Assembly (NCBI GenBank): GCA_963733915.1
Contig: CAVTEP010000001.1
Coordinates: forward strand, 828,214-892,213
Length of the DNA: 64,000 bases
Origin: Candidatus Sulfomarinibacteraceae bacterium
GTDB taxonomy: Bacteria > Acidobacteriota > Thermoanaerobaculia > Thermoanaerobaculales > Sulfomarinibacteraceae
Direction: 5' to 3'
Below, piece by piece: positions 2,315-64,000 of the stretch. The notes beneath the pieces were generated by a model that worked only from the letters and a program-made list of their open reading frames with translations, did not search any database and was not told where the DNA came from. Every line of letters begins with the position of its first letter. Position 1 is the stretch's first letter. The position numbers were made by a program, and so were the translations under genes.

Positions 2315-4687
2315 ATGATCCGAAGAGGGTGGTTTGTCGTGCTGATGTTGGCGGTGCTGCCACTGGTCGTCACCGTGCTTGGACTCACCCACCTCCGAGC
2401 GCGGTCGGCCTCGAGCCGATTACCCGAACGCGGTTTGATCACCGAGATTGCGCCTCGCTGTCCCGCTCGATCGCAGGTGCTTTTCGATGATCGCGGCATA
2501 CCCCACGTCTTCGCGTCGAGCGAGGCAGCGGTGTGGTTCAGTCAGGGGTACCTTCACGCGCAGGACAGGTTCTTCCAGATGGAAATGATGCGGCGAACGG
2601 CGGCAGGCCGCCTGGCCGGGCTTTTGGGCTCGTCCGGGTTGGAATCCGATCGCAAGATGCGGATCCTGCGCCTCGCCGCCTCGGCGAGACGGCAGCGTGC
2701 GCAGCTTTCGGCTGACGAGAGTGCGGTGCTCGAGGCATACGCCGCCGGCGTCAATGCCGCGCTCGAACGGTACGGACGGTGGATCGCTCCCGAAATCTGG
2801 TTGCTCGGTCTGGATCCGGAGCCGTGGCAGATCGAGGACTCACTCTCCATAGGCCTCCTGTTGCAGCTCGACCTGAGCTGGGCGATGGGTGAGGAGCTCA
2901 AGCGGGCGGTGGAGCTGGCCAGTCTCGGCCGCGAGCGGGCGATCTCACTGTGGGGATGGACGTCAGATCAGGCTCGGGATTGGATCCCTCCGGGTGATGG
3001 CATCCGCCAGCCCCGGCGTGATCACGAAGCGATCACCCCGGCGATGGGAGGCGTCGGCTCCAACAGTTGGGTTGTGGGTCCGGAACTGAGCGCCACCGGA
3101 CGGCCGTTGCTTGCCAATGATCCGCACCTCGGTGTTCAGATACCGGGCACCTTCTTTGCCATCCATCTGCAGGGGCCGAGAACCGATGTGGCCGGTGGCT
3201 CGATGGCCGGGCTGCCGGGGGTCATCATCGGTCACACCAAACACGTGGCCTGGGGGCTGACCCTGGCGATGCTCGACGATCAAGATCTTTTTGTTCTCAC
3301 GCTTGACGATTCGGGGGACCGCGAGTTGATTGACGGCCGGTGGAGTCACCTGCGGACGGTCACCGAGAATATCGTTGTCCGATGGCAGCCTGAACCGGTG
3401 CTGCTCAAAATCCGACTTTCGGTCAACGGTCCTTTGGTCCGCGAGGGCGGGGGAGAATCGCTCGCACTGTCGTGGGCGGCGTTTAACGGACCGAGCATGC
3501 TGCCGGCAATTCTGGGGATGAACCGGGCATCGTCCGTAGAGGACGTGGCCTCGGCGTGGAACGACGTCCTGAGTCCGTCGCTTTGTCTGGTGGCGGCCGA
3601 TACCTCCGGGCACATCCTGCACCAGGTCGTCGGCAGGGCGCCGGAACGCAGGCGGGGCGGAGGCCGGTTGCCCGCACCCGGCTCCGATTCGCGATGGGCG
3701 TGGAGGGGATTCCGGCCTCTGTCGTCGAAGTTGAGGCGTCTCGATCCAAGCGACGGCATCCTCGCCACGGCAAACCACGATCTCTTTGCCGAGGGGGACT
3801 TTCCGGAAAGGGACCGCCTCCCGGGTGATTTTGCTCCTCCCTGGCGGGTCCGACGGATCCGCAGCGTTCTAGCGTCGCGGTCGGAATGGACCGTGGATGG
3901 CTTCGCCGAGCTGCAGGGTGATGTGCAGTCGGGACGCGCAATCGCGATCCTCAAACAACTGTGGACCGATTTCGAGAATCATGGCGGGCGAAGCGCGCAG
4001 GAACTCATGTCGTGGGACGCGAGGATGGACGCGAATTCGACGGCCGCGGCCCTTTTCTCCACGTTCATGATCGAGCTGGGGGAGGCGGTCGCTGGTGATG
4101 AGGCGCGCCGCGACCGTCTCGACTGGAATCCACTTGGTTCGGACGGGTTGCTCAGGCTCCTCGCCGGCGGTCTGGAGGAGGCGTGGTGGGATGACGTGGG
4201 GGCGGATGGTCAGCAGTCCCGGGCGGAGATCGTGGGTCAGGTTCTCGATCGTATGGATCGGGCCGCACCGGGACCGACTTGGGGGGCGGTCCACAAAGTC
4301 GCGTTCGAGCACCCGCTGGCGCAAGCCCCCGGTGTCGGCCGATTGGTGGCCAACTCTTGGAGCCGTGGTCCGTTCGCCGTTGGAGGCGACAACGTCACAG
4401 TCAACGCTACCTGCTGGGACGTCGACCGGCCCTTCACCGTCACATCACTGCCGGCCATGCGTTTCGTCACCGAGGTCGGCGACTGGGACGAGACCATTCT
4501 CATACTGCCGGTGGGGGAGAGCGGTCGGCCGTGGTCGCCGCACTACGCCGACCAGATCGACAGCTGGCTCAACATCGGAACCGATCGTTTTCCTTTTTCC
4601 CGCGAGGCGGTTGAGGCTGTCGCGGTCGCGGAGCTCGAGTTAGTGCCGGTGGACGCCGAAGCGACTCGCGAGGTCACAGCGCGGTGA
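2315..4687 (+). CDS. Penicillin acylase family (Ntn hydrolase, S45)
   Basis: Motifs DDRGIPHV, GYLHAQDRFFQM, beta-chain start GSNSW, LANDPHL and GESG..SPHY.DQ. N-terminal signal anchor. Confidence 0.92.
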   Translation: MIRRGWFVVLMLAVLPLVVTVLGLTHLRARSASSRLPERGLITEIAPRCPARSQVLFDDRGIPHVFASSEAAVWFSQGYLHAQDRFFQMEMMRRTAAGRLAGLLGSSGLESDRKMRILRLAASARRQRAQLSADESAVLEAYAAGVNAALERYGRWIAPEIWLLGLDPEPWQIEDSLSIGLLLQLDLSWAMGEELKRAVELASLGRERAISLWGWTSDQARDWIPPGDGIRQPRRDHEAITPAMGGVGSNSWVVGPELSATGRPLLANDPHLGVQIPGTFFAIHLQGPRTDVAGGSMAGLPGVIIGHTKHVAWGLTLAMLDDQDLFVLTLDDSGDRELIDGRWSHLRTVTENIVVRWQPEPVLLKIRLSVNGPLVREGGGESLALSWAAFNGPSMLPAILGMNRASSVEDVASAWNDVLSPSLCLVAADTSGHILHQVVGRAPERRRGGGRLPAPGSDSRWAWRGFRPLSSKLRRLDPSDGILATANHDLFAEGDFPERDRLPGDFAPPWRVRRIRSVLASRSEWTVDGFAELQGDVQSGRAIAILKQLWTDFENHGGRSAQELMSWDARMDANSTAAALFSTFMIELGEAVAGDEARRDRLDWNPLGSDGLLRLLAGGLEEAWWDDVGADGQQSRAEIVGQVLDRMDRAAPGPTWGAVHKVAFEHPLAQAPGVGRLVANSWSRGPFAVGGDNVTVNATCWDVDRPFTVTSLPAMRFVTEVGDWDETILILPVGESGRPWSPHYADQIDSWLNIGTDRFPFSREAVEAVAVAELELVPVDAEATREVTAR

Positions 4688-5340: not shown

Positions 5341-5803
5341 GACGGGCGAGCGGTTGTCGGTGCGACCGCCCCAACTGGGCGACTCGCGGGCGCTGGCCGA
5401 GGCGGAGGTTGTCTGTTTTTCGGACCCGTGGCCGGCCCAATTCTTTGTCTCAGAGATCCTGGCGGACGGACGCTTCAACCGACTCCTTGTTGATCCTGCC
5501 GGACACATGGTGGCCTACCTCTTCTGCGCCTGGCAGTATCTGGATCTGCACGTGCTCAAGGTCGCCACCATGCCGTCGCACCGACGCAAAGGTCTCGCAC
5601 TGCGCCTGATGGCGATCGCCGAAGCCCACGCGGTCGAAGCCGGCGGCGAGTCTCTGACTCTCGAAGTGCGGGCGTCCAACGACGGCGCCATCGCCCTTTA
5701 TGAAACGCTCCGCTACTACCAGGCAGGCGTGCGCCGAGGCTACTACCAGGACGGCGAGGACGCGGTCGTCATGACAAAACGAATTCAGAATTCGGAATTC
5801 TGA
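5327..5803 (+). CDS. rimI: Ribosomal protein S18 alanine N-acetyltransferase
   Basis: Motifs FSDPW, RRKGLA, LEVRASN..AI.LY and GVRRGYY..GEDA. Probable TTG start at 5327. The C-terminal IQNSEF* is encoded by a heptamer repeat. Confidence 0.9.
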   Translation: MPSAETGERLSVRPPQLGDSRALAEAEVVCFSDPWPAQFFVSEILADGRFNRLLVDPAGHMVAYLFCAWQYLDLHVLKVATMPSHRRKGLALRLMAIAEAHAVEAGGESLTLEVRASNDGAIALYETLRYYQAGVRRGYYQDGEDAVVMTKRIQNSEF

Positions 5804-5997
5804 ATTCTGAAAAGGGGAAAAGGGGAAAAGGAGACCAACCGCCCTCCGACTGTGCCCCACCGCCAACGCTCTCCTGCTCCTCTGCCCCTCCGCTCCTTTT
5901 CTCCTTTTCACGGCAGGGTGGGCGGAAACTCGAAATTCGAAATCCGAAATCCGAAATGGAGGGGAGGGCGGGAATTCCTAATTCCTAATTCCTAATT
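5781..5997. repeat. Composite intergenic repeat: (GAATTCN)n, (AAAAGGGG)n...(CTCCTTTT)n, GGGTGGGCGG, (AAATCCG)n, (AATTCCT)n
   Basis: Several tandem-repeat blocks between convergent rimI and fumC, overlapping both stop codons. Confidence 0.9.
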
Positions 5998-9777: not shown

Positions 9778-9899
9778 TCCCTCCCGACCCACCCCTCCGT
9801 GAAAAGGAGAAAAGGCGCAGAGGAGCAGAGGGGTGGGCGCGGTCTCCTTTTCCCCTTTTCTCCTTTTCCCCTTTTCACACACTGCATCCTGCATCCTGG
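9778..9899. repeat. Composite intergenic repeat: CCCACCC, (AAAAGGAG)n, GGGTGGG, (CTCCTTTT/CCCCTTTT)n, (TGCATCC)2
   Basis: Inverted octamer arms, same family as 5810-5910 and 25220-25384. Confidence 0.85.
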
Positions 9900-16566: not shown

Positions 16567-16852
16567 CGGAAATGCGTGAGATCGAGGGTTGGAAGTTTCG
16601 GTCAGCAGCGACAGGGACAGAGACAGACGGCAGAGGCAGGGTCAGAGGGCAGCGGCCGGGGCAGCGCTCAAGGGTCGTGACGCGCTGGACCGTCCGGGCG
16701 CTGCCGCCGTCCCTGCCCGAAGTTGCAACGGATAGAACCAACGACTTCGTGGGGGGGGGCTCCCCTTTTCCCCTTTTCCCCTTTTCTCCTCTCCGTCCTC
16801 GGGACGGCCGGGCGGAACGTTCAAACGTTCTAACGTTCTAACGTTCTAACGT
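16567..16852 (+). mobile_element. Gene-less (MITE-like) internal-deletion derivative of the four-helix-bundle element
   Basis: 16567-16682 matches leader 39232-39358. 16700-16852 matches the trailer end plus the (CCCCTTTT)n-GGGCGG-(AACGTTCT)n tail at 40048-40125. Mobility is inferred. Confidence 0.7.
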
Positions 16853-18335
16853 TGGTGCGCTGCAGCATCCGATTCCTGGGATCGCGGCTCTCGCCGACCG
16901 CGGAAACGCGGATCGCGGCCTGCTCGCCGACCGGACAGCGGTTCTCGCACAGTCCGCAGCCGGTGCAGAGGTCGGGGGTGACGGAGGGGCGCTGCAGGAT
17001 GACGGCTTTGCCGTCGCGGCGGGTCACCTCGACGGTCTCGAGCCAGACCGCTTTGGGCGAGGTGGGGCACATCTCCTCGCAGACGATGCAGGGCGTTTCC
17101 ATGCCCCAGGGCAGGCAGCGGCCGCGGTCGACAAAGGCGGTGCCGATGGTGACCTCGGCCGGTCCGCCGATCGCCTGTTTGGCGTTGGGGTCGACGGTGG
17201 CGATGGCGGCGGTCGGGCAGACCTCGCCGCAGCGGATACACGACGGCTCGCACCAGCCGCGGCGCATGTCGAGGATCGGCGTGAACAGCCCCTCGACCCC
17301 GGTCTTGCCGAGGTCGGCGCGGATCACCCCGGTGGGACAGGAGGCCGAGCAGGCGCCACAGGTGATGCAGCGGGCGAGGAAGGCCTCCTCGTCGAGCGCG
17401 CCCGGCGGGCGGATTCCATCGTGGGCGCGGCCTTCGAGGCCGTTGCCGGCCGCGCGCAGCACCGGCGCAAAGGCGGCCGAACCGGCGACGGTGAGCAGGA
17501 AACGGCGGCGGCCGACATCGAGGGCCGGCACGGGCTGTGCGGTTTGGGCTGACGGCAGACCGTAGTGCAGGCTCTCCTCGGAGCAGGTGCCGAGACAGTT
17601 GAGGCAGACGTGGCACTCGCTGACGCGGTGCTTCTCGAGCGGCTCGTCGGCCCCCTGGCAGGCGAATACGCACAGCGTGCAGCCGGTGCAGGAACCCGAC
17701 TGGTCGCGACGGATGCGCAACGGGGCGAGACGGGCGACGACACCCATCAGGGCTCCCAGGGGACACACTGCGCGACAGAAGAAGCGGGGGATCATCGCCG
17801 ACAACAGGAGAATCGTGGCCAGCAGGCCAAAGCTGACCCAGCCGCCGGGGGAAAGGCCGCCGTGCCACAGTGGGCGGATGCCGCCGGCAAAGGCGCGGTG
17901 GAGCAGGGGGATGGGGTCGAGCCAGCCGATGTGGTTGGCGCCAAGCGCGGCCCACACCAGGAGCACCGTGAGCACGATGTACTTGATCGAGAACCAGCGG
18001 TGGTAGCGGTTGATCTTGGGCCGCTTGCGGCGCTCGGGGCCGGCGATCCAGGAGACGATTTGCTGGAGGGTGCCGAGCGGACACACCCAGCCGCAGAAGA
18101 TACGGCCGAGGACCGCGGTGAGGGCCAGGACCGCGAGGCCGATCCAGGTCCAGCGGGGAATGGTCCAGTCGGACAGCGCCGTGCCGATGGCGGTCAAGGG
18201 ATCGAGGGCGAGCAGGATTGAAGCCGCCGCCGCGGGCACCCGCGGCTCGGCAAGCCCCCAGAAAAGCGCCACGAACGCAAGCAGGAAGAGCGCCTGGGAG
18301 AGTATCCGATAGTGCCGCGCGCGAGGCAGCTTCAT
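16830..18335 (-). CDS. Membrane 4Fe-4S protein (NapH/MauN-like fused to MauM/NapG-like)
   Basis: Motifs GRIFCGWVCPLG, FFCRAVCPLG, IRPPGA and multiple CxxCxxCxxxCP. Start taken at ATG 18335 because the upstream part of the ORF is repeat-derived. Confidence 0.88.
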   Translation of the reverse strand: MKLPRARHYRILSQALFLLAFVALFWGLAEPRVPAAAASILLALDPLTAIGTALSDWTIPRWTWIGLAVLALTAVLGRIFCGWVCPLGTLQQIVSWIAGPERRKRPKINRYHRWFSIKYIVLTVLLVWAALGANHIGWLDPIPLLHRAFAGGIRPLWHGGLSPGGWVSFGLLATILLLSAMIPRFFCRAVCPLGALMGVVARLAPLRIRRDQSGSCTGCTLCVFACQGADEPLEKHRVSECHVCLNCLGTCSEESLHYGLPSAQTAQPVPALDVGRRRFLLTVAGSAAFAPVLRAAGNGLEGRAHDGIRPPGALDEEAFLARCITCGACSASCPTGVIRADLGKTGVEGLFTPILDMRRGWCEPSCIRCGEVCPTAAIATVDPNAKQAIGGPAEVTIGTAFVDRGRCLPWGMETPCIVCEEMCPTSPKAVWLETVEVTRRDGKAVILQRPSVTPDLCTGCGLCENRCPVGEQAAIRVSAVGESRDPRNRMLQRTNVRTLER

Positions 18336-19504: not shown

Positions 19505-19742
19505 TCCCCCCACCCGTCCGAGAAAAGGAGAAAAGGAGAAAAGGAGAAAAGGAGCAGAGGAGCAGGACGTTAGAACGTTAGAACGTTTAACGTTGAAACG
19601 TTTTCCGCCCGCCCAACCTGATGTACCGGTGACGGGGGAGGGTGGCAACGTTCTAACGTGCCAACGTTCTAACGTGCCAACGTTCTCCCCGTTTCACAAC
19701 GACGTCCACCCGTGCCAACGATAAGACGTGCCAAAGTTCGAA
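19505..19742. repeat. Composite repeat (AAAAGGAG)n, (AACGTTAG)n, CCGCCCGCCC..GGGGGAGGGTGG, (AACGTTCT/AACGTGCC)n
   Basis: Octamer tandem blocks in a divergent intergenic region. Confidence 0.9.
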
Positions 19743-24702: not shown

Positions 24703-25221
24703 GTGCCGTGGTGATCGGGCCCGAGACCAAGGTCGGTGATCTGCTCGATGCCTACCCCGAGGCGGAGGAAGTCCTGATCGGGATCGCACCCCAGTTCAAG
24801 GCCCTCAAGAACCCGGTCCTGCGGCGTACGGTCGCCAGGGTGGCTACCCTGGAGCAGGCGGCGCGGGTGGCGGGGATGAGCGCCAGGGAGCTCGTGAGGG
24901 CGCTGCGGAGCGCGCTCGGAGCCGATTGCGGCGTGCTGGAGGACGGTCCCGACTCGGGCGGTGGGAAACGACGACGCTCCGGTCTGGGTGCGCGTGGATC
25001 AAGAGGCGACGATCGACGCCGGCGCGTTGCTCGACGCCGGCCAGACGCCGATCGCGATCGCGTCGAAGGCCATTTCCGAGATGGAGACCGGGGAGGTGCT
25101 GGTGGTTGCCGCGCCCTTCCAACCGGCGCCGCTCATCGACTCGCTCAGGGGCAAGGGGCACGAGGTGTATATCCGAGCCGACGATGATGGTGCGTGGAAG
25201 GTGTGGGTGAGGAAAGGCTGA
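24699..25221 (+). CDS. DUF1858 domain protein, apparent frameshift near 24960
   Basis: TKVGDLLDAYP and FKALKNP.LR. The C-terminus (PFQPAPLID) is in ORF 24961..25221. Confidence 0.75.
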
Positions 25222-25456
25222 AAAGGGGAAAAGGGGAAAAGGAGAAAAGGAGAAAAGGAGAAAAGGAGAGTGGGTGCCTTGAGCCGTTGAAACGTTAATA
25301 CGTTAGAACGTTAGAACGTTCAAACGTTTCAACGGTTTGCGGCAGACACCCGCCTCTGCGCCTTTTCTCCTTTTCCCCTTTTCAAAATGCGGTGGATCTC
25401 CTCGGGCAGGTGGGGGAATTCCTGATTCCCAATTCCTAATTCCTAATTCCTAATTC
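25220..25456. repeat. Nested composite repeat (AAAAGGRG)6 .. (AACGTTAG)n .. (CCTTTTCT)n, GGTGGGG, (AATTCCT)n
   Basis: Begins at the TGA of the upstream gene; nested inverted arms. Confidence 0.9.
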
Positions 25457-25570
25457 GGAACTCTCCATCCATGGCGGCCACGCCACGTTGTGCTACCTTT
25501 GCAGCGCTCCAATAGCGACCGGAATGTGGGACGGAATTCGCAGGTTGAACGATCGGAACGGGGTGGCGCA

Positions 25571-38852: not shown

Positions 38853-39225
38853 CCGTGCCCATACCCGTCTCCGTATCCGTGCCCGAACGTGGTCTTGGGC
38901 CCTCAAAGACCAGGGAAATCCCAGAGTCGGCAGCGTAACTCCCGCCCCTTCAATTTTTACTTCTCGTGCTTCCGAGCACGGAGACAGAGACGGGCGCAGC
39001 GGCTTCGCAGCGAAAACGGATCGTTACGACGACGTGGGCACCTTCGGGCATTGTGGCTGTGGACTGCCCCTGGCGCGGTCTCCGGCCGCTGCCGCCGCAC
39101 CTGCCGCCGTTCGATTGAAGGGAACCACAGGCCGGAGGAGGGGGCGGGGAAAAATTCCGAATTCTGAGGTGCTTCCTTTTCCCTTTTTCCCCCGCCTTTT
39201 CAGGGAAGGTGAGCGGAACGTTCGG
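38853..39225. repeat. 6-nt-period repeat block plus an extra copy of the element trailer module
   Basis: CCGTGC-period repeats at 38853-38888 with a complementary arm near 38974-38997. 39056-39190 is a diverged direct repeat of ~39902-40066. Confidence 0.8.
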
Positions 39226-39363
39226 TTCACCCGGAATTGCGTGAGATCGAGGTTTGGAAGTTCCGATTGGCATTTGCAGCGACAGGAACAGCGACCGACC
39301 GCAGGGGCAGCGAACAGCGTCCGCGGCAGCGGCCGGGGCAGCGAGCAGGGGTCGTGACGACGG

Positions 39364-39515
39364 CATGGCCACCTCCGGGTCGTTCAGTGCGAGAAGTAGC
39401 CGGTGGCCGGCCGATGTCAAGGGCAAGCCGGGCCGGGGGCCCGGTGCGATGCACCCTTGACATCGGCCGCCTCACCGGCTCGAGGAAGGGCATGAACGAC
39501 CCGGAGGTGAACATG
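39364..39515 (+). promoter_or_regulatory. Long 5'-leader hairpin sequestering the SD and AUG of the four-helix gene
   Basis: Stems 39364-39386/39493-39515 (21 of 23 bp), 39398-39405/39473-39480 (8 bp) and 39408-39423/39454-39469 (16 bp). Confidence 0.8.
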
Positions 39516-39866
39516 TCCGACGCGCTCACGAAACCCAACCTCGTTGCCCACTCGAAAGCCCTTGACGCGGCTGGCATCGCCATCAGGCTTGTGATGAGGG
39601 TGCCAGCCCCTTTGAAATCGATCGCCGATCAGGTGATCCGGTCGGCAAGCTCGGTCCCCGCCAACCTGGCGGAAGGGCACGGCCGGGCCGGAAGAGACCG
39701 GCATCACTTCTGGAGGATCGCCTACGGCTCAGCCAAGGAGGTCGACAGCCACCTTCGCCTCCTGGTTCAGGCGGGTGCCATTGATGGACGAAGCGCCACG
39801 ACAGCGCTCAATACCTTCGATGAAGTTCGCGCCATGACCTGGCGCTTGCTCAACCCACAAACCTGA
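39513..39866 (+). CDS. Four-helix-bundle protein (23S rRNA IVP / TIGR02436 family), 117 aa
   Basis: DQVIRSASSVPANLAEGHGR..F.RIAYGSAKE motif; SD GGAGG 5 nt before ATG 39513. Confidence 0.92.
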   Translation: MSDALTKPNLVAHSKALDAAGIAIRLVMRVPAPLKSIADQVIRSASSVPANLAEGHGRAGRDRHHFWRIAYGSAKEVDSHLRLLVQAGAIDGRSATTALNTFDEVRAMTWRLLNPQT

Positions 39867-40006
39867 TCGACCTTCTCCGCGCCGGTGCGTCGGGGCGCTG
39901 TCGCTGTGGACTGCCCCTGACGCGGATTCCTGCCCCTGCCGCAGTCCCTGCCGCCTGCCGCCCATAGATCGGGCAGAACCACAGGCCCGAGAGGGGGTAG
40001 GGGGAA

Positions 40007-40039
<33 letters not shown>

Positions 40040-40130
40040 TGAGGTGCCTCCTTTTCCCCTTTTCTCCTCTGCCAAACCGGGACGGCTGGGCGGAACGTTC
40101 TAACGTTCTAACGTTCCAACGTGCCAACGC

Positions 40131-40661
40131 CTAGTAATATGGTCGATACCCCAGGTCCTCGTCCTCGATCGGGCCCTTCTGTTTCAGCTGTTCGATGCCC
40201 ACGACGGCCTGTTCGCGGGTCGTGTAGGCGAACGCGTGCTTCCGGCTCATGATCAGCGCCTGCTTGGGACAGGCATCGACGCAATAACCGCAGAATACGC
40301 AGCGCAACAGGTCAATTTCGAACGACAACGGTAGCTTTTCCCACTCGACCGTCGCCTCCGGGTCCTCCTCGGCGACGATCGTGATGCAGTCCGCCGGGCA
40401 CACCGTCTCGCACATATAGCAGGCGACGCAACGCAGCGAGCCGTCGTCTTTCGTGGTCAAGATGTGGCGCCCGCGCATTCTCTCCGAGTACTCGCGCACC
40501 TCTTCGGGGTATTGGATCGTCGCCACATCCCGTTGGCCAAAGAGGTTGCGAAGAAAGTGGCGGAGCGTCACCGCCAGGCCCTTGACGATCGAACCCAGGT
40601 AGAGCCGTTCACCGAGACCGCGGCGCCGCGGATCGACGTTGACGGTGGTGACCGGTTTCAT
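40131..40661 (-). CDS. nuoI: NADH-quinone oxidoreductase subunit I
   Basis: Motifs TIQYPE, RCVACYMCETVCP and RCVFCGYCVDACP. Confidence 0.93.
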   Translation of the reverse strand: MKPVTTVNVDPRRRGLGERLYLGSIVKGLAVTLRHFLRNLFGQRDVATIQYPEEVREYSERMRGRHILTTKDDGSLRCVACYMCETVCPADCITIVAEEDPEATVEWEKLPLSFEIDLLRCVFCGYCVDACPKQALIMSRKHAFAYTTREQAVVGIEQLKQKGPIEDEDLGYRPYY

Positions 40662-44113: not shown

Positions 44114-44286
44114 CTGAACCTCCTTCTGCCCGGCCGATATCGGCGCTCCGGACACTGTACCTCGATATTTAGCAACATCGGTGCCATGCTGCGAAACGTT
44201 GAGCGCCAGAACTCGGTGAGTGATTCCGTTGGGCGCTCCGTCTCGTCCAGGTTTCGAAGTGTAACCGGGAGGAGACACTAGGAGGG

Positions 44287-44553
44287 CGTTAGAACGTTCA
44301 ACGTTCGAACGTTAGAACGTTCCACCCACCCACCCCGAAGCCGTTGGTCGCATTCGTTGAATCGGCAGTCAGGGACAGCGGCGGGAACAGCGTCGGCGGC
44401 CGGAGACCGCGTCAGGGGCGGCCCACAGCGACGGCACCCGGAGGACCGGCACTGAAATCGTCGATCGACAGTCACGCGGCTTCTCACAGACGGGGGAGGG
44501 TGTGATGGGAACGTTTAACGTTCTAACGTTCTAACGTTCTAACGATCCAACGG
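44287..44553 (-). repeat. Trailer-module unit flanked by inverted (AACGTT..) octamer arms and CCCACCC/GGGAGGG brackets
   Basis: Core CGGAGACCGCGTCAGGGGCGGCCCACAGC is the reverse complement of the trailer at 39056 and 39902; closely similar to 45410-45585. Confidence 0.85.
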
Positions 44554-44610
44554 TTGGTCTACCCCTGGCCACCGATGAGCTTTCCCGGCTAGGATGAGTG
44601 AGGGGTACCC

Positions 44611-59174: not shown

Positions 59175-59205
59175 CATGACGCGGCTCGTGACAGGCCACC
59201 GGGCG

Positions 59206-59531
59206 TCATGTCATCCCGAACGAACGGCGCAAAGCGGCGTGAGGAGGGATCTGCATCGGTAGTCGCTGCCGGTTCGTTCGAACCCGCCCACCCAGACCCT
59301 TCGGTCGGCTGCGCCTTCCTCAGGGTGACATTCAGACTCGGCTGCCAAGGCCAGCCGGTCTTCATGTCATCCCGAACGAACGGCGCAAAGCGGCGTGAGG
59401 AGGGATCTGCATCGGTAGTCGCTGCCGGTTTGTTGGAACCCGCCCACCCAGACCCTTCGGTCGGCTGCGCCTTCCTCAGGGTGACATGTCGACTCGGCTG
59501 CCAAGGTCAGCCGGTCTTCATGTCATCCCGA
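59206..59531. repeat. 156-bp tandem repeat of a REP-like palindrome (TGTCATCC...GGGTGACA), two full units plus the start of a third
   Basis: TGTCATCCCGA begins at 59209, 59365 and 59521. Confidence 0.92.
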
Positions 59532-62912: not shown

Positions 62913-63175
62913 GCGAACGCTCCCACCGTTGAAACGTTTGAACGTTAGAACGTTCCGCCCGCCCTCCCTGAAAAGGCAGTGGGGAAAAGGTGAAAAGGGG
63001 AAAAGGAGCCATCGCAGATTTCGGATTTCGGATTTTCCACCCACCCGTCCCCGACGAGTTTGGTCGCATCCGTTGGACGGGCGGTCAGGGGCGGCGGCAG
63101 GGACAGCGGCCGGGGACCGCGTCAGGGACAGTTGACAGCGGCAGCACCCGGCCGGACCGGCGCGGAGAACGCCGA

Positions 63176-63529
63176 TCAGGTGTTTGGGTTGAGCAAACGC
63201 CAGGTCATGGCGCGGACTTGATCGAAGGTATCGAGCACGATCATGGCGCTTCGTCCATCAACGGCACCAGCCTGAACCAGGAGGCGAAGGTGGCTGTCGA
63301 CCTCCTTGGCTGAGCCGTAGGCGATCCTCCAGAAGTGCTGCCGGTCTCGTCCGGACCGGCCGTGGCCTTCCGCCAGGTTGGCCGGGACCGAGCTAGCCGA
63401 CCGGATCACCTGATCGGCGATCGACTTCAAAGGGGCTGGAACCCTCATCACGAGCTTGATGGCGATGCCAGCCGCGTCAAGGGCTTTCGAGTGGGCAACG
63501 AGGTTGGGGTTCGTGAGCGCGTCGGACAT
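63176..63529 (-). CDS. Four-helix-bundle protein (23S rRNA IVP / TIGR02436 family), 117 aa
   Basis: 11 of 117 residues differ from copy 1 (manual count); same SD and start. Confidence 0.92.
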   Translation of the reverse strand: MSDALTNPNLVAHSKALDAAGIAIKLVMRVPAPLKSIADQVIRSASSVPANLAEGHGRSGRDRQHFWRIAYGSAKEVDSHLRLLVQAGAVDGRSAMIVLDTFDQVRAMTWRLLNPNT

Positions 63530-63678
63530 GTTCACCTCCGGGTCGTTCATGCCCTTCCTCGAGCCGGTGAGGCGGCCGATGTCAAGGGTGCATCGCACCG
63601 GGCCCCTGGCCCGGCTTGCCCTTGACATCGGGTGCCCACCGGCTACCTCTCGCACTGAACGACCCGGAGGTGAACATG
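63527..63678 (-). promoter_or_regulatory. Leader hairpin occluding SD and AUG (copy 2)
   Basis: Perfect 23-bp inverted repeat 63527-63549/63656-63678 (TGAACGACCCGGAGGTGAACATG). Confidence 0.82.
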
Positions 63679-63930
63679 CCCTCGTCACGACCCCTGCTCA
63701 CTGCCCCGGTCGCTGCCGCGGTCGCTGCCGCGGACGCTGTTCACTGCCCCTGCGGTGTGTCGCTGTTCCTGTCGCTGGATTAGCTGATCGGAACTTCCAA
63801 AACTCGATCCCATCAAATTCCGGATGAGCCGAACGTTTCACTCATCCCTTCCAGGGACCTCGGACGGTCACTCCACCCAGGTGGGCGGTTGGTAACGTTC
63901 TAACGTTCCAACGTTTTAACGTTTGTGCCC

Positions 63931-64000
63931 TCAGCTGGCGATCAGCCGCCAGATCGCGACCCACGCCGGCAACGCGACGGTGCACACGAGATAGGACAGG
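63931..64000 (-). CDS. 3' end of a membrane protein (possibly AEC-family transporter), truncated by the window
   Basis: Reads ..LSYLVCTVALPAWVAIWRLIAS*. Confidence 0.4.
   Translation of the reverse strand, partial: LSYLVCTVALPAWVAIWRLIAS

Follow-up and report, generated by a model that had tools for sequence, protein, structure and literature searches.

A conserved, covarying leader hairpin over the translation start of a mobile PF05635 gene in Acidobacteriota and its possible role as a translation gate

A 64,000-nucleotide stretch of DNA from a Candidatus Sulfomarinibacteraceae bacterium (Acidobacteriota; GenBank assembly GCA_963733915.1, contig CAVTEP010000001.1, positions 828,214 to 892,213 of the forward strand; hereafter, the window) carries two copies of a gene for a four-helix-bundle protein of family PF05635, each preceded by a palindromic leader of about 150 nucleotides (nt) that pairs the gene's own Shine-Dalgarno sequence (SD) and start codon with an upstream complement. 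Here, we describe the fold of this leader hairpin, its conservation and covariation across a large family of mobile cassettes, its precise alignment with the SD and AUG, and the purifying selection that acts on both the hairpin and the protein. From this pattern we infer, with somewhat better than even confidence, that the hairpin is a cis-acting structure of the 5' leader RNA that gates gene expression by blocking translation initiation. Throughout, G000 denotes the source genome (4.65 Mb in 14 contigs, 96.75% completeness), C with a number denotes a contig, and L with a number denotes a locus of a relative.

Results

Both window copies fold into a nested hairpin that covers the SD and start codon

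The initial annotation of the window had described three nested stems in front of both gene copies, with the SD and start codon lying in the outer 3' arm, and minimum free energy (MFE) folding bears out both points (Table 1). Copy 1 folds at -118.3 kcal/mol, compared with -73.6 +/- 3.9 kcal/mol for its dinucleotide shuffles, and copy 2 folds at -122.3 kcal/mol, compared with -71.1 +/- 4.5 kcal/mol. The z-scores are both about -11.4, and the stability of the native fold was matched by 0 of 200 shuffles for copy 1 and 0 of 200 for copy 2. In copy 1, the two outer arms (39364-39386 and 39493-39515, 23 nt) are 91% complementary, with 21 of 23 positions paired, and a 9-bp helix (GCCGGTGG with CACCGGC) lies between the outer and middle stems. 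The outer stem of copy 2 is perfect, as had also been claimed, and its MFE fold runs through 28 consecutive outer pairs. The region of the middle stem (39408..39469) contains two blocks, TGTCAAGG and CCTTGACA, that are invariant in the family, as well as the hexamer TTGACA at 39457-39462. The 3' arm runs directly into the open reading frame (ORF), and no terminator-like site was found between 39000 and 40200; the hairpin thus lacks the make-up of an intrinsic terminator, in which a run of T follows a G+C-rich stem.

Table 1. Window coordinates of the leader hairpins, the genes that follow them and the associated cassette features (TIR, terminal inverted repeat; I with a number, inverted repeat)
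Feature	Position	Strand	Details
Leader hairpin, copy 1	39364..39515	+	MFE -118.3 kcal/mol, z -11.43; inverted repeats I3, I6
Leader hairpin, copy 2	63527..63678	-	MFE -122.3 kcal/mol, z -11.45
5' outer arm, copy 1	39364..39386	+	CATGGCCACCTCCGGGTCGTTCA; anti-SD mimic; complement of SD and ATG; 21/23 pairs with 39493-39515
3' outer arm, copy 1	39493..39515	+	TGAACGACCCGGAGGTGAACATG; SD GGAGGTG 39503-39509; ATG 39513-39515; upstream in-frame ATG 39492-39494
Middle stem, copy 1	39408-39423 x 39454-39469	+	16/16 complementary (I6)
Apical hairpin, copy 1	39428-39446	+	CCGGGCC-GGG-GGCCCGG; from the fold
Four-helix-bundle gene, copy 1	39513..39866	+	117 aa; PF05635 61.6 bits; TIGR02436 64 bits
Four-helix-bundle gene, copy 2	63176..63529	-	117 aa; PF05635 58.8 bits; TIGR02436 59.9 bits
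Left ISL3-type tip, copy 1	39224..39236	+	GGTTCACCCGGAA, with AACGTTC before it; from the TIR census
ISL3-type end, cassette copy 2	63816..63837	-	AATTCCGGATGAGCCGAACGTT on the + strand; exact 22-mer match, G000:C1:892029-892050
G-rich GGCAGCG-type repeats, possible outer arm	39301..39341	+	I1, I2, I4, I7: 71-79% complementary to 39911-39959
C-rich CTGCC-type repeats downstream of the gene	39911..39959	+	Complementary to 39301-39341

The hairpin is a large family whose pairing is under selection

The two hairpins in the window, which the initial annotation had treated as a pair, proved to be members of a family. In the source genome there are 12 full hairpins, 91-100% identical, along with one truncated copy and seven fragments that consist of the 5' arm alone. 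In a DNA search, the hairpin matched 18 of the 24 genomes from its own genus, often at dozens of sites, and one of 16 genomes of the sister family, and the copies found in relatives number more than 100. A scan seeded with the protein yielded 376 related stretches, and the best 80 of these 376 serve as the relatives' loci in this study. When 116 leader windows were folded, 98 had an MFE below -95 kcal/mol. The hairpin and gene form a multi-copy mobile cassette in soil and sediment Acidobacteriota. An Rfam search of the window, which the initial annotation had called for, gave no family match at the gathering threshold, and at E<=1 it returned only microRNA-precursor models far below threshold.

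The main alignment was built with MAFFT, blind to structure, from 109 copies (106 distinct). Eight of the 80 related loci were left out of it, two of them too near a contig end and six (L063, L065, L067, L069, L115 and L137) with the hairpin deleted, interrupted or replaced. Across the 109 copies, standard pairs form in 89.6% of stem cells, compared with 27-44% when the partners are slid. Both sides have changed in 36 of 60 pairs, against 16.5 +/- 2.0 in column shuffles, none of 500 of which reached the observed number, and 11-22 in slid controls. Compensatory change, the check that had been named for the hairpin, therefore lies well above the shuffled expectation. Cells with double changes number 182, versus 42.7 in shuffles, and a 38-copy set has 24 of 63 pairs changed on both sides, versus 9.3 in shuffles. 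For example, CCGATG/CATCGG is replaced by CCGGAG/CTCCGG, AGCCGGT/CACCGGC by AGCTGCC/CTGGCAGC, and GGGCAG/GCTGCC by GAGTCGG/GCCGACTC.

Two duplexes hardly vary at all. The outer one, CCTCCGGGTCGTTC at 39372-39385 paired with GAACGACCCGGAGG at 39494-39507, is nearly invariant in the 109 copies, and the inner one, TGTCAAGG at 39415-39422 paired with CCTTGACA at 39455-39462, has a constant 8-bp core with covarying pairs on its flanks. In relatives the apex either covaries or is deleted. The internal loops are asymmetric and stay non-complementary across all copies, and thus copying from one arm to the other does not explain the complementarity of the stems. Among the 12 copies in the source genome, the mean p-distance of the hairpin is 0.072, the gene has a synonymous divergence (dS) of 0.19 and a nonsynonymous-to-synonymous ratio (dN/dS) of 0.23, and the cassette ends differ by 0.14-0.16. 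The low hairpin distance relative to dS, together with the low dN/dS, shows that the hairpin and the protein are both constrained. Selection acts on the pairing in which the SD and AUG are buried.

The palindrome is registered on the translation start

The 3' end of the palindrome is the G of the start ATG. Among the 105 distinct copies with letters at the start codon, its A is paired in 102, its U in 103 (34 as G.U) and its G in 77. An in-frame ATG at 39492, 21 nt 5' of 39513, was considered as an alternative start and is ruled out by two indels between the candidate ATGs, one of -1 in L008 and one of +1 in L036; ATG 39513 is therefore the real start.

The 5' arm reproduces the sequence that the ribosome would use to recognize this gene. 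It contains CACCTCC, as does the 3' tail of the genome's own 16S rRNA (...GGATCACCTCCTTTCT), and in copy 2 and many other family copies it holds TCACCTCC, which matches the 16S 3' tail of the organism. The SD of the gene is unusually long (GGAGGTGA). Thus, the leader carries an intramolecular anti-SD that would compete with the ribosome for the SD.

Several natural variants bear on the relation between the stem and the start site. In copy C3:63739 of the source genome, CACCTCCGGG / CCCGGAGGTG has become CA-AGCCGGG / CCCGGC(G)TTG, which destroys the SD and retains the pairing; the halves of this double change are found singly in copies C6:748331 and C6:1088297. In relatives the inner part of the hairpin is shortened (L044, L058) or swapped for an unrelated palindrome of ~220 nt (L115, L137 (780-1212)), and the outer stem with the SD and AUG is retained in all four.

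The leader hairpin is not general to PF05635 genes

Both window proteins score above the curated cut-offs of the hidden Markov models PF05635 (33.8 bits) and TIGR02436 (24 bits), which describe the Avd-like 23S rRNA intervening sequence (IVS) protein, and the nearest solved chain to the window protein is 2gsc_A (E 1.6e-4). Genes of the PF05635 family occur in rRNA intervening sequences and, under the name Avd, in diversity-generating retroelements; outside the latter, no function is known for the proteins. In Acidobacteriota the family is widespread, with matches in 44 of the 81 genomes sampled and often in several copies.

The hairpin does not accompany these genes in general. The five other PF05635 paralogues in the source genome have no comparable leader hairpin. 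Among 28 scored distant PF05635 loci from other Acidobacteriota, one had z < -4, and at none of them did a comparable stem cover the SD and AUG. For the latter test 30 loci were fetched, one per genome, and two were dropped (one for an N, one for a contig end), and each was compared with 40 mononucleotide shuffles; one locus, L164, comes from an unpublished genome (G089), and the result is independent of it. Three of the five paralogues lie within 5 kb of one another (G000:C1:760721-765319, ~63 kb before the window), each beside 8-nt tandem arrays.

The cassette shares its ends with an autonomous ISL3 element

The cassette is a unit of ~855 bp (843-878 bp in the eight full copies bounded by TIRs). 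Its tips are 13 nt long, GGCTCATCCGGAA, and are flanked by NAACGTTN units. The 8-bp flanks, NAACGTTC, agree at 8/8 positions in three, 7/8 in five and 5/8 in one of nine TIR-bounded copies; the insertion target already consists of arrayed NAACGTTN units, so such matches are expected and do not independently support target duplication. According to the TIR census, copy 1 is without a right-hand ISL3 tip.

The cassette carries no transposase, its gene being that of the PF05635 protein, and the source genome, at 96.75% completeness, has no match to the ISL3 transposase family PF01610. PF01610 is present in six of 24 congeners. At L172 (G017:C613), TIRs of 40 nt that are 85% complementary (935-974 and 2224-2263) bound a PF01610 ORF of 403 aa. 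This ISL3 element has the 13-nt tip of the cassette and AACGTT flanks, and it adjoins a hairpin cassette (2330-3198) within one AACGTT array. The leader of its transposase gene has modest structure (z -3.35). Judged by these shared TIRs, the cassette appears to be a non-autonomous partner of an ISL3 element, similar to a mobile insertion cassette (MIC) or a miniature inverted-repeat transposable element (MITE).

These ends are not fixed, however. Of the 80 related loci, 15 have both ISL3 tips and 44 have neither, and in the 14 tipless loci sampled from the 44 the hairpin and gene are flanked by (CAGCGN)n arrays on one side and complementary (NCGCTG)n arrays on the other. The repeats at 39301-39341 and 39911-39959 are a weaker form of these arms in the window cassette. 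Because the hairpin and gene stay together in cassettes with different ends, the hairpin is to be assigned to the gene rather than to a single transposition machinery.

Two deletion derivatives of ~414 bp (G000:C4:91293-91720 and C4:51607-51995) retain the cassette ends and, of the hairpin, the 5' arm alone. In both, this arm is fused to the final ~50 nt of the gene with an identical junction, GTCGTTCAG followed by TTCGAT, which indicates that the deleted form spread after the deletion. Just upstream of cassette copy 1, 39046-39167 directly repeats 39893-40021, a module downstream of the gene (GTGGACTGCCCCTG...GAAAAATTCCGAATTC), with 78-83% identity (D9, D11, D14). Intergenic tandem arrays of 8-nt units (GAAAAGGR, AACGTTNN, AATTCCKA), often in mirror-image arms, occur at 5793-5849, 9785-9841, 16764-16860, 19506-19691, 25204-25462, 40000-40130, 44272-44556, 62914-63024 and 63875-63933; one example of such arms is 25236-25309 against 25310-25383 (77% complementary), and the cassette ends abut AACGTTNN arrays. 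At 59199-59510, a 156-nt unit is duplicated in tandem with 95% identity (D8). Among relatives, L047 has a 170-nt palindrome at the hairpin apex (1480-1860), and L065 and L069 have a ~110-nt insert within GAAC^GACCC of the hairpin 3' arm.

Discussion

A proposed gate on translation initiation, and what weighs against it

How might a leader of this kind act? A transcript that contains both arms would fold a G+C-rich closing stem of ~17-23 bp, in which the anti-SD copy (CACCUCC...) would pair with the very strong SD (GGAGGUGA) and CAU would pair with AUG, while the inner helices would nucleate the fold and clamp it. By default the gene would then be OFF, and protein would be made only from RNAs whose 5' arm is missing or has been cut off. 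The gate may be opened by RNase III cleavage of the long perfect duplex, or by transcription that starts inside the hairpin.

The initial annotation had proposed a translational off-switch against read-through transcription from host genes, similar to the sequestration of the ribosome-binding site (RBS) in insertion-sequence transposase genes. This proposal is supported in part: selection maintains the pairing over the SD and AUG, the unit is mobile, and the cassettes are mostly sited after gene ends. In the source genome, 7 of the 10 determinable copies (12 in total) lie immediately 3' of a co-directional host gene, and in relatives the left neighbour is co-directional at 24 of 36 determinable loci (75 loci, 39 undetermined) by a crude call based on GC content at third codon positions. 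The parallel with transposases holds in that the stem covers the RBS. The gene, however, is a passenger and not a transposase, and the stems have no sense-strand G.U bias. An IS10-type switch would also need an internal promoter, by which the element's own mRNA is freed of the 5' arm, and no sigma-70-like promoter was found in 39000-40200 on either strand.

Among metatranscriptomes, only four runs contained 0.05-0.08 of the sampled words. Short RNA-library contigs of relatives (85% likeness) extend over 39308-39433, which takes in the 5' arm and sequence upstream of it, as well as over the 3' arm and the gene; these contigs give no starts, ends or strand and could stem from DNA carry-over, and they weakly hint that both arms can occur in RNA.

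Several observations weigh against a translation gate. First, no sigma-70-like promoter was found on either strand between 39000 and 40200, and the invariant TTGACA at 39457-39462 has no -10 hexamer 16-18 nt on. Second, a gene whose transcripts all contained both arms would go untranslated, but its dN/dS of 0.23 says that the protein is made. Third, nothing marks the sense RNA as the folded strand. When both strands of 98 copies were folded, the energies were -112.2 kcal/mol for the sense strand and -114.2 kcal/mol for the antisense strand; 67 copies favoured the antisense and 28 the sense. The stem cells contain 229 G.U versus 174 A.C combinations, and 23 pairs have any G.U versus 29 with any A.C. 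With no bias in either wobble or fold, the strand test cannot name the sense RNA as the functional strand. The conserved feature is Watson-Crick complementarity, and a role at the DNA level would give the same pattern; the palindromes nested within the hairpin in L047, L065 and L069 point to DNA-level hairpin biology in these genomes. Fourth, neither arm varies at TGTCAAGG / CCTTGACA or at GAACGACCC, which lies upstream of the SD, and simple occlusion does not explain such invariant blocks. Finally, the ORF remains intact despite loss of the whole hairpin in L067 or of its 5' half in L063.

Alternatives to the proposed gate

The strongest of the alternatives, though in itself unlikely, is that the hairpin is an RNase III processing stem. 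A cut would separate the gene's mRNA from host read-through RNA, and would then either free the SD and AUG or start decay. This explanation overlaps with the translation gate, as cleavage would be the gate's opener. Activation of translation by RNase III leader cleavage is reportedly known from the lambda N leader and E. coli adhE; by analogy, and with no sequence relation, RNase III could plausibly act on the long duplex that locks the RBS here. The outer stem is 23 bp long and perfect in copy 2, its 14-bp core is invariant in 109 copies, and the genome encodes RNase III (PF14622, 94.5 bits, C1:821204-821587). As no promoter was found in the cassette, expression from processed read-through RNA is an attractive possibility. 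In the Coxiella burnetii 23S rRNA IVS, the gene for the PF05635 protein S23p lies in a 28-bp stem, RNase III is the processor and cuts mid-stem, and translation in vivo is doubtful, according to the published account (PMC4990558). The case is weakened by three points: the enzyme has no reliable sequence signature, the hairpin here is wholly 5' of the ORF and does not enclose it as an IVS stem does, and cleavage would leave a duplex of ~10-12 bp on the SD.

A broader version of the same idea takes in the repeats outside the hairpin. The whole-cassette fold pairs the regions 39301-39341 and 39911-39959 (z -8.6), and the outer arms, hairpin and gene together might make up a self-contained 'IVS-like' RNA module. 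Such a module would be passively transcribed by read-through, cut by RNase III at the outer duplex and bound at its own blocks by the Avd-like protein, and it would hitch-hike on varied transposon ends, ISL3 in this case. We regard this as a speculative scenario, and rather unlikely to hold in full.

A role of the palindrome at the DNA level is also rather unlikely, and we would place it marginally lower. Here, a cruciform or single-strand hairpin would serve replication, recombination or the insertion of palindromic modules, and cover of the SD and AUG would be secondary. The lack of a sense-strand wobble bias fits this explanation, as do the other palindromes found at the apex (L047), in the 3' arm (L065, L069) or in place of the inner part (L115, L137), and intergenic regions that are full of hairpin-forming tandem-repeat arrays. 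Yet the palindrome stops precisely at the start codon and includes both the SD and an anti-SD mimic, its asymmetric internal loops persist and its arms are not homogenised, and it travels with the gene between differing ends (both ISL3 tips at 15 of 80 loci, neither at 44).

Alternatively, the invariant duplex blocks could be the binding site of a protein, most simply of the four-helix-bundle protein itself, which would then act in autoregulation or RNA packaging. Avd, a relative of this protein, binds nucleic acid. Two duplex blocks are invariant on both arms with covarying helices between them, and the hairpin and gene always travel together. However, the requirement for an SD accounts for part of the outer block, and no comparable hairpin is present at the 5 paralogues or the 28 distant PF05635 genes, and we consider this explanation improbable.

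Finally, a divergent promoter region, in which the TTGACA of each arm would be an outward -35 element and no RNA would contain both arms, is very improbable: TTGACA (39457-39462) and its mirror image are indeed invariant in the family, but no -10-like hexamer is found on either strand (the sites read TCGAGG, TTGTGA, TTGTGG, ACTTCT and ACCCCT), a shared promoter function cannot yield compensatory changes, and the antisense ORF is ragged. This antisense frame, which begins at the mirror ATG (39366 leftwards, - strand), was not taken as a gene because its length ranges from 23-137 aa with ragged ends in the 12 copies. The frame is Ala-rich (MPSSRPLLAAP...CPCG.SLFLSL) in all 12 copies and the indels of its 12-nt repeat are in frame, but it is probably not a gene.

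Relation to known systems

In the literature on PF05635/TIGR02436 and rRNA intervening-sequence proteins, we found no description of the cassette or of its leader hairpin. The closest parallels to the proposed translation gate are with insertion sequences. 'Fold-back inhibition' of read-through transcripts was reportedly described for IS10 and IS50 by Davis, Simons and Kleckner in 1985. In IS200, a stem-loop occludes the RBS (PMC3196728). As in IS200 and IS10, the gene start of a mobile element is paired here with an upstream complement, and the 3' arm covers the RBS and start codon, an arrangement that would leave read-through transcripts of host genes untranslated. Unlike in those elements, the gene is a passenger encoding a four-helix-bundle protein and not a transposase, no internal promoter was found, and the module also occurs outside ISL3-type cassettes. 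The hairpin is also about ten times more stable (-118 kcal/mol over 150 nt in three nested helices).

With the Coxiella IVS, the cassette shares the PF05635 family, a long and nearly perfect stem beside the start codon and, possibly, complementary outer arms around the gene. It differs in that it does not lie in rRNA: none of the 17 PF05635 matches in the genome falls within the 23S gene (C11:1006602-1009621). In addition, the conserved hairpin is wholly upstream of the ORF, and there are dozens of copies per genome. Like mobile insertion cassettes and cargo MITEs that are moved in trans, the unit has no transposase and shares its tips with an autonomous ISL3 element; in contrast to them, its cognate transposase was not found in the genome, and in many relatives the hairpin and gene are without ISL3 tips.

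Significance

A conserved, covarying leader that locks the start codon offers a concrete experimental handle on PF05635 proteins. The leader suggests that expression of this protein is tightly gated, and it names the element on which RNase III cleavage and protein binding can be tested. With more than 100 natural copies and no Rfam match, the hairpin is, in addition, a clean candidate for a new family of structured RNAs. Moreover, it links cassettes that stand on their own with rRNA intervening sequences, which likewise combine a stem with an ORF. If the cassette were indeed an IVS-like RNA module, it would represent a free-living ancestor of the ORF-bearing rRNA intervening sequences, and its hairpin would be the first cognate nucleic-acid ligand for PF05635 proteins.

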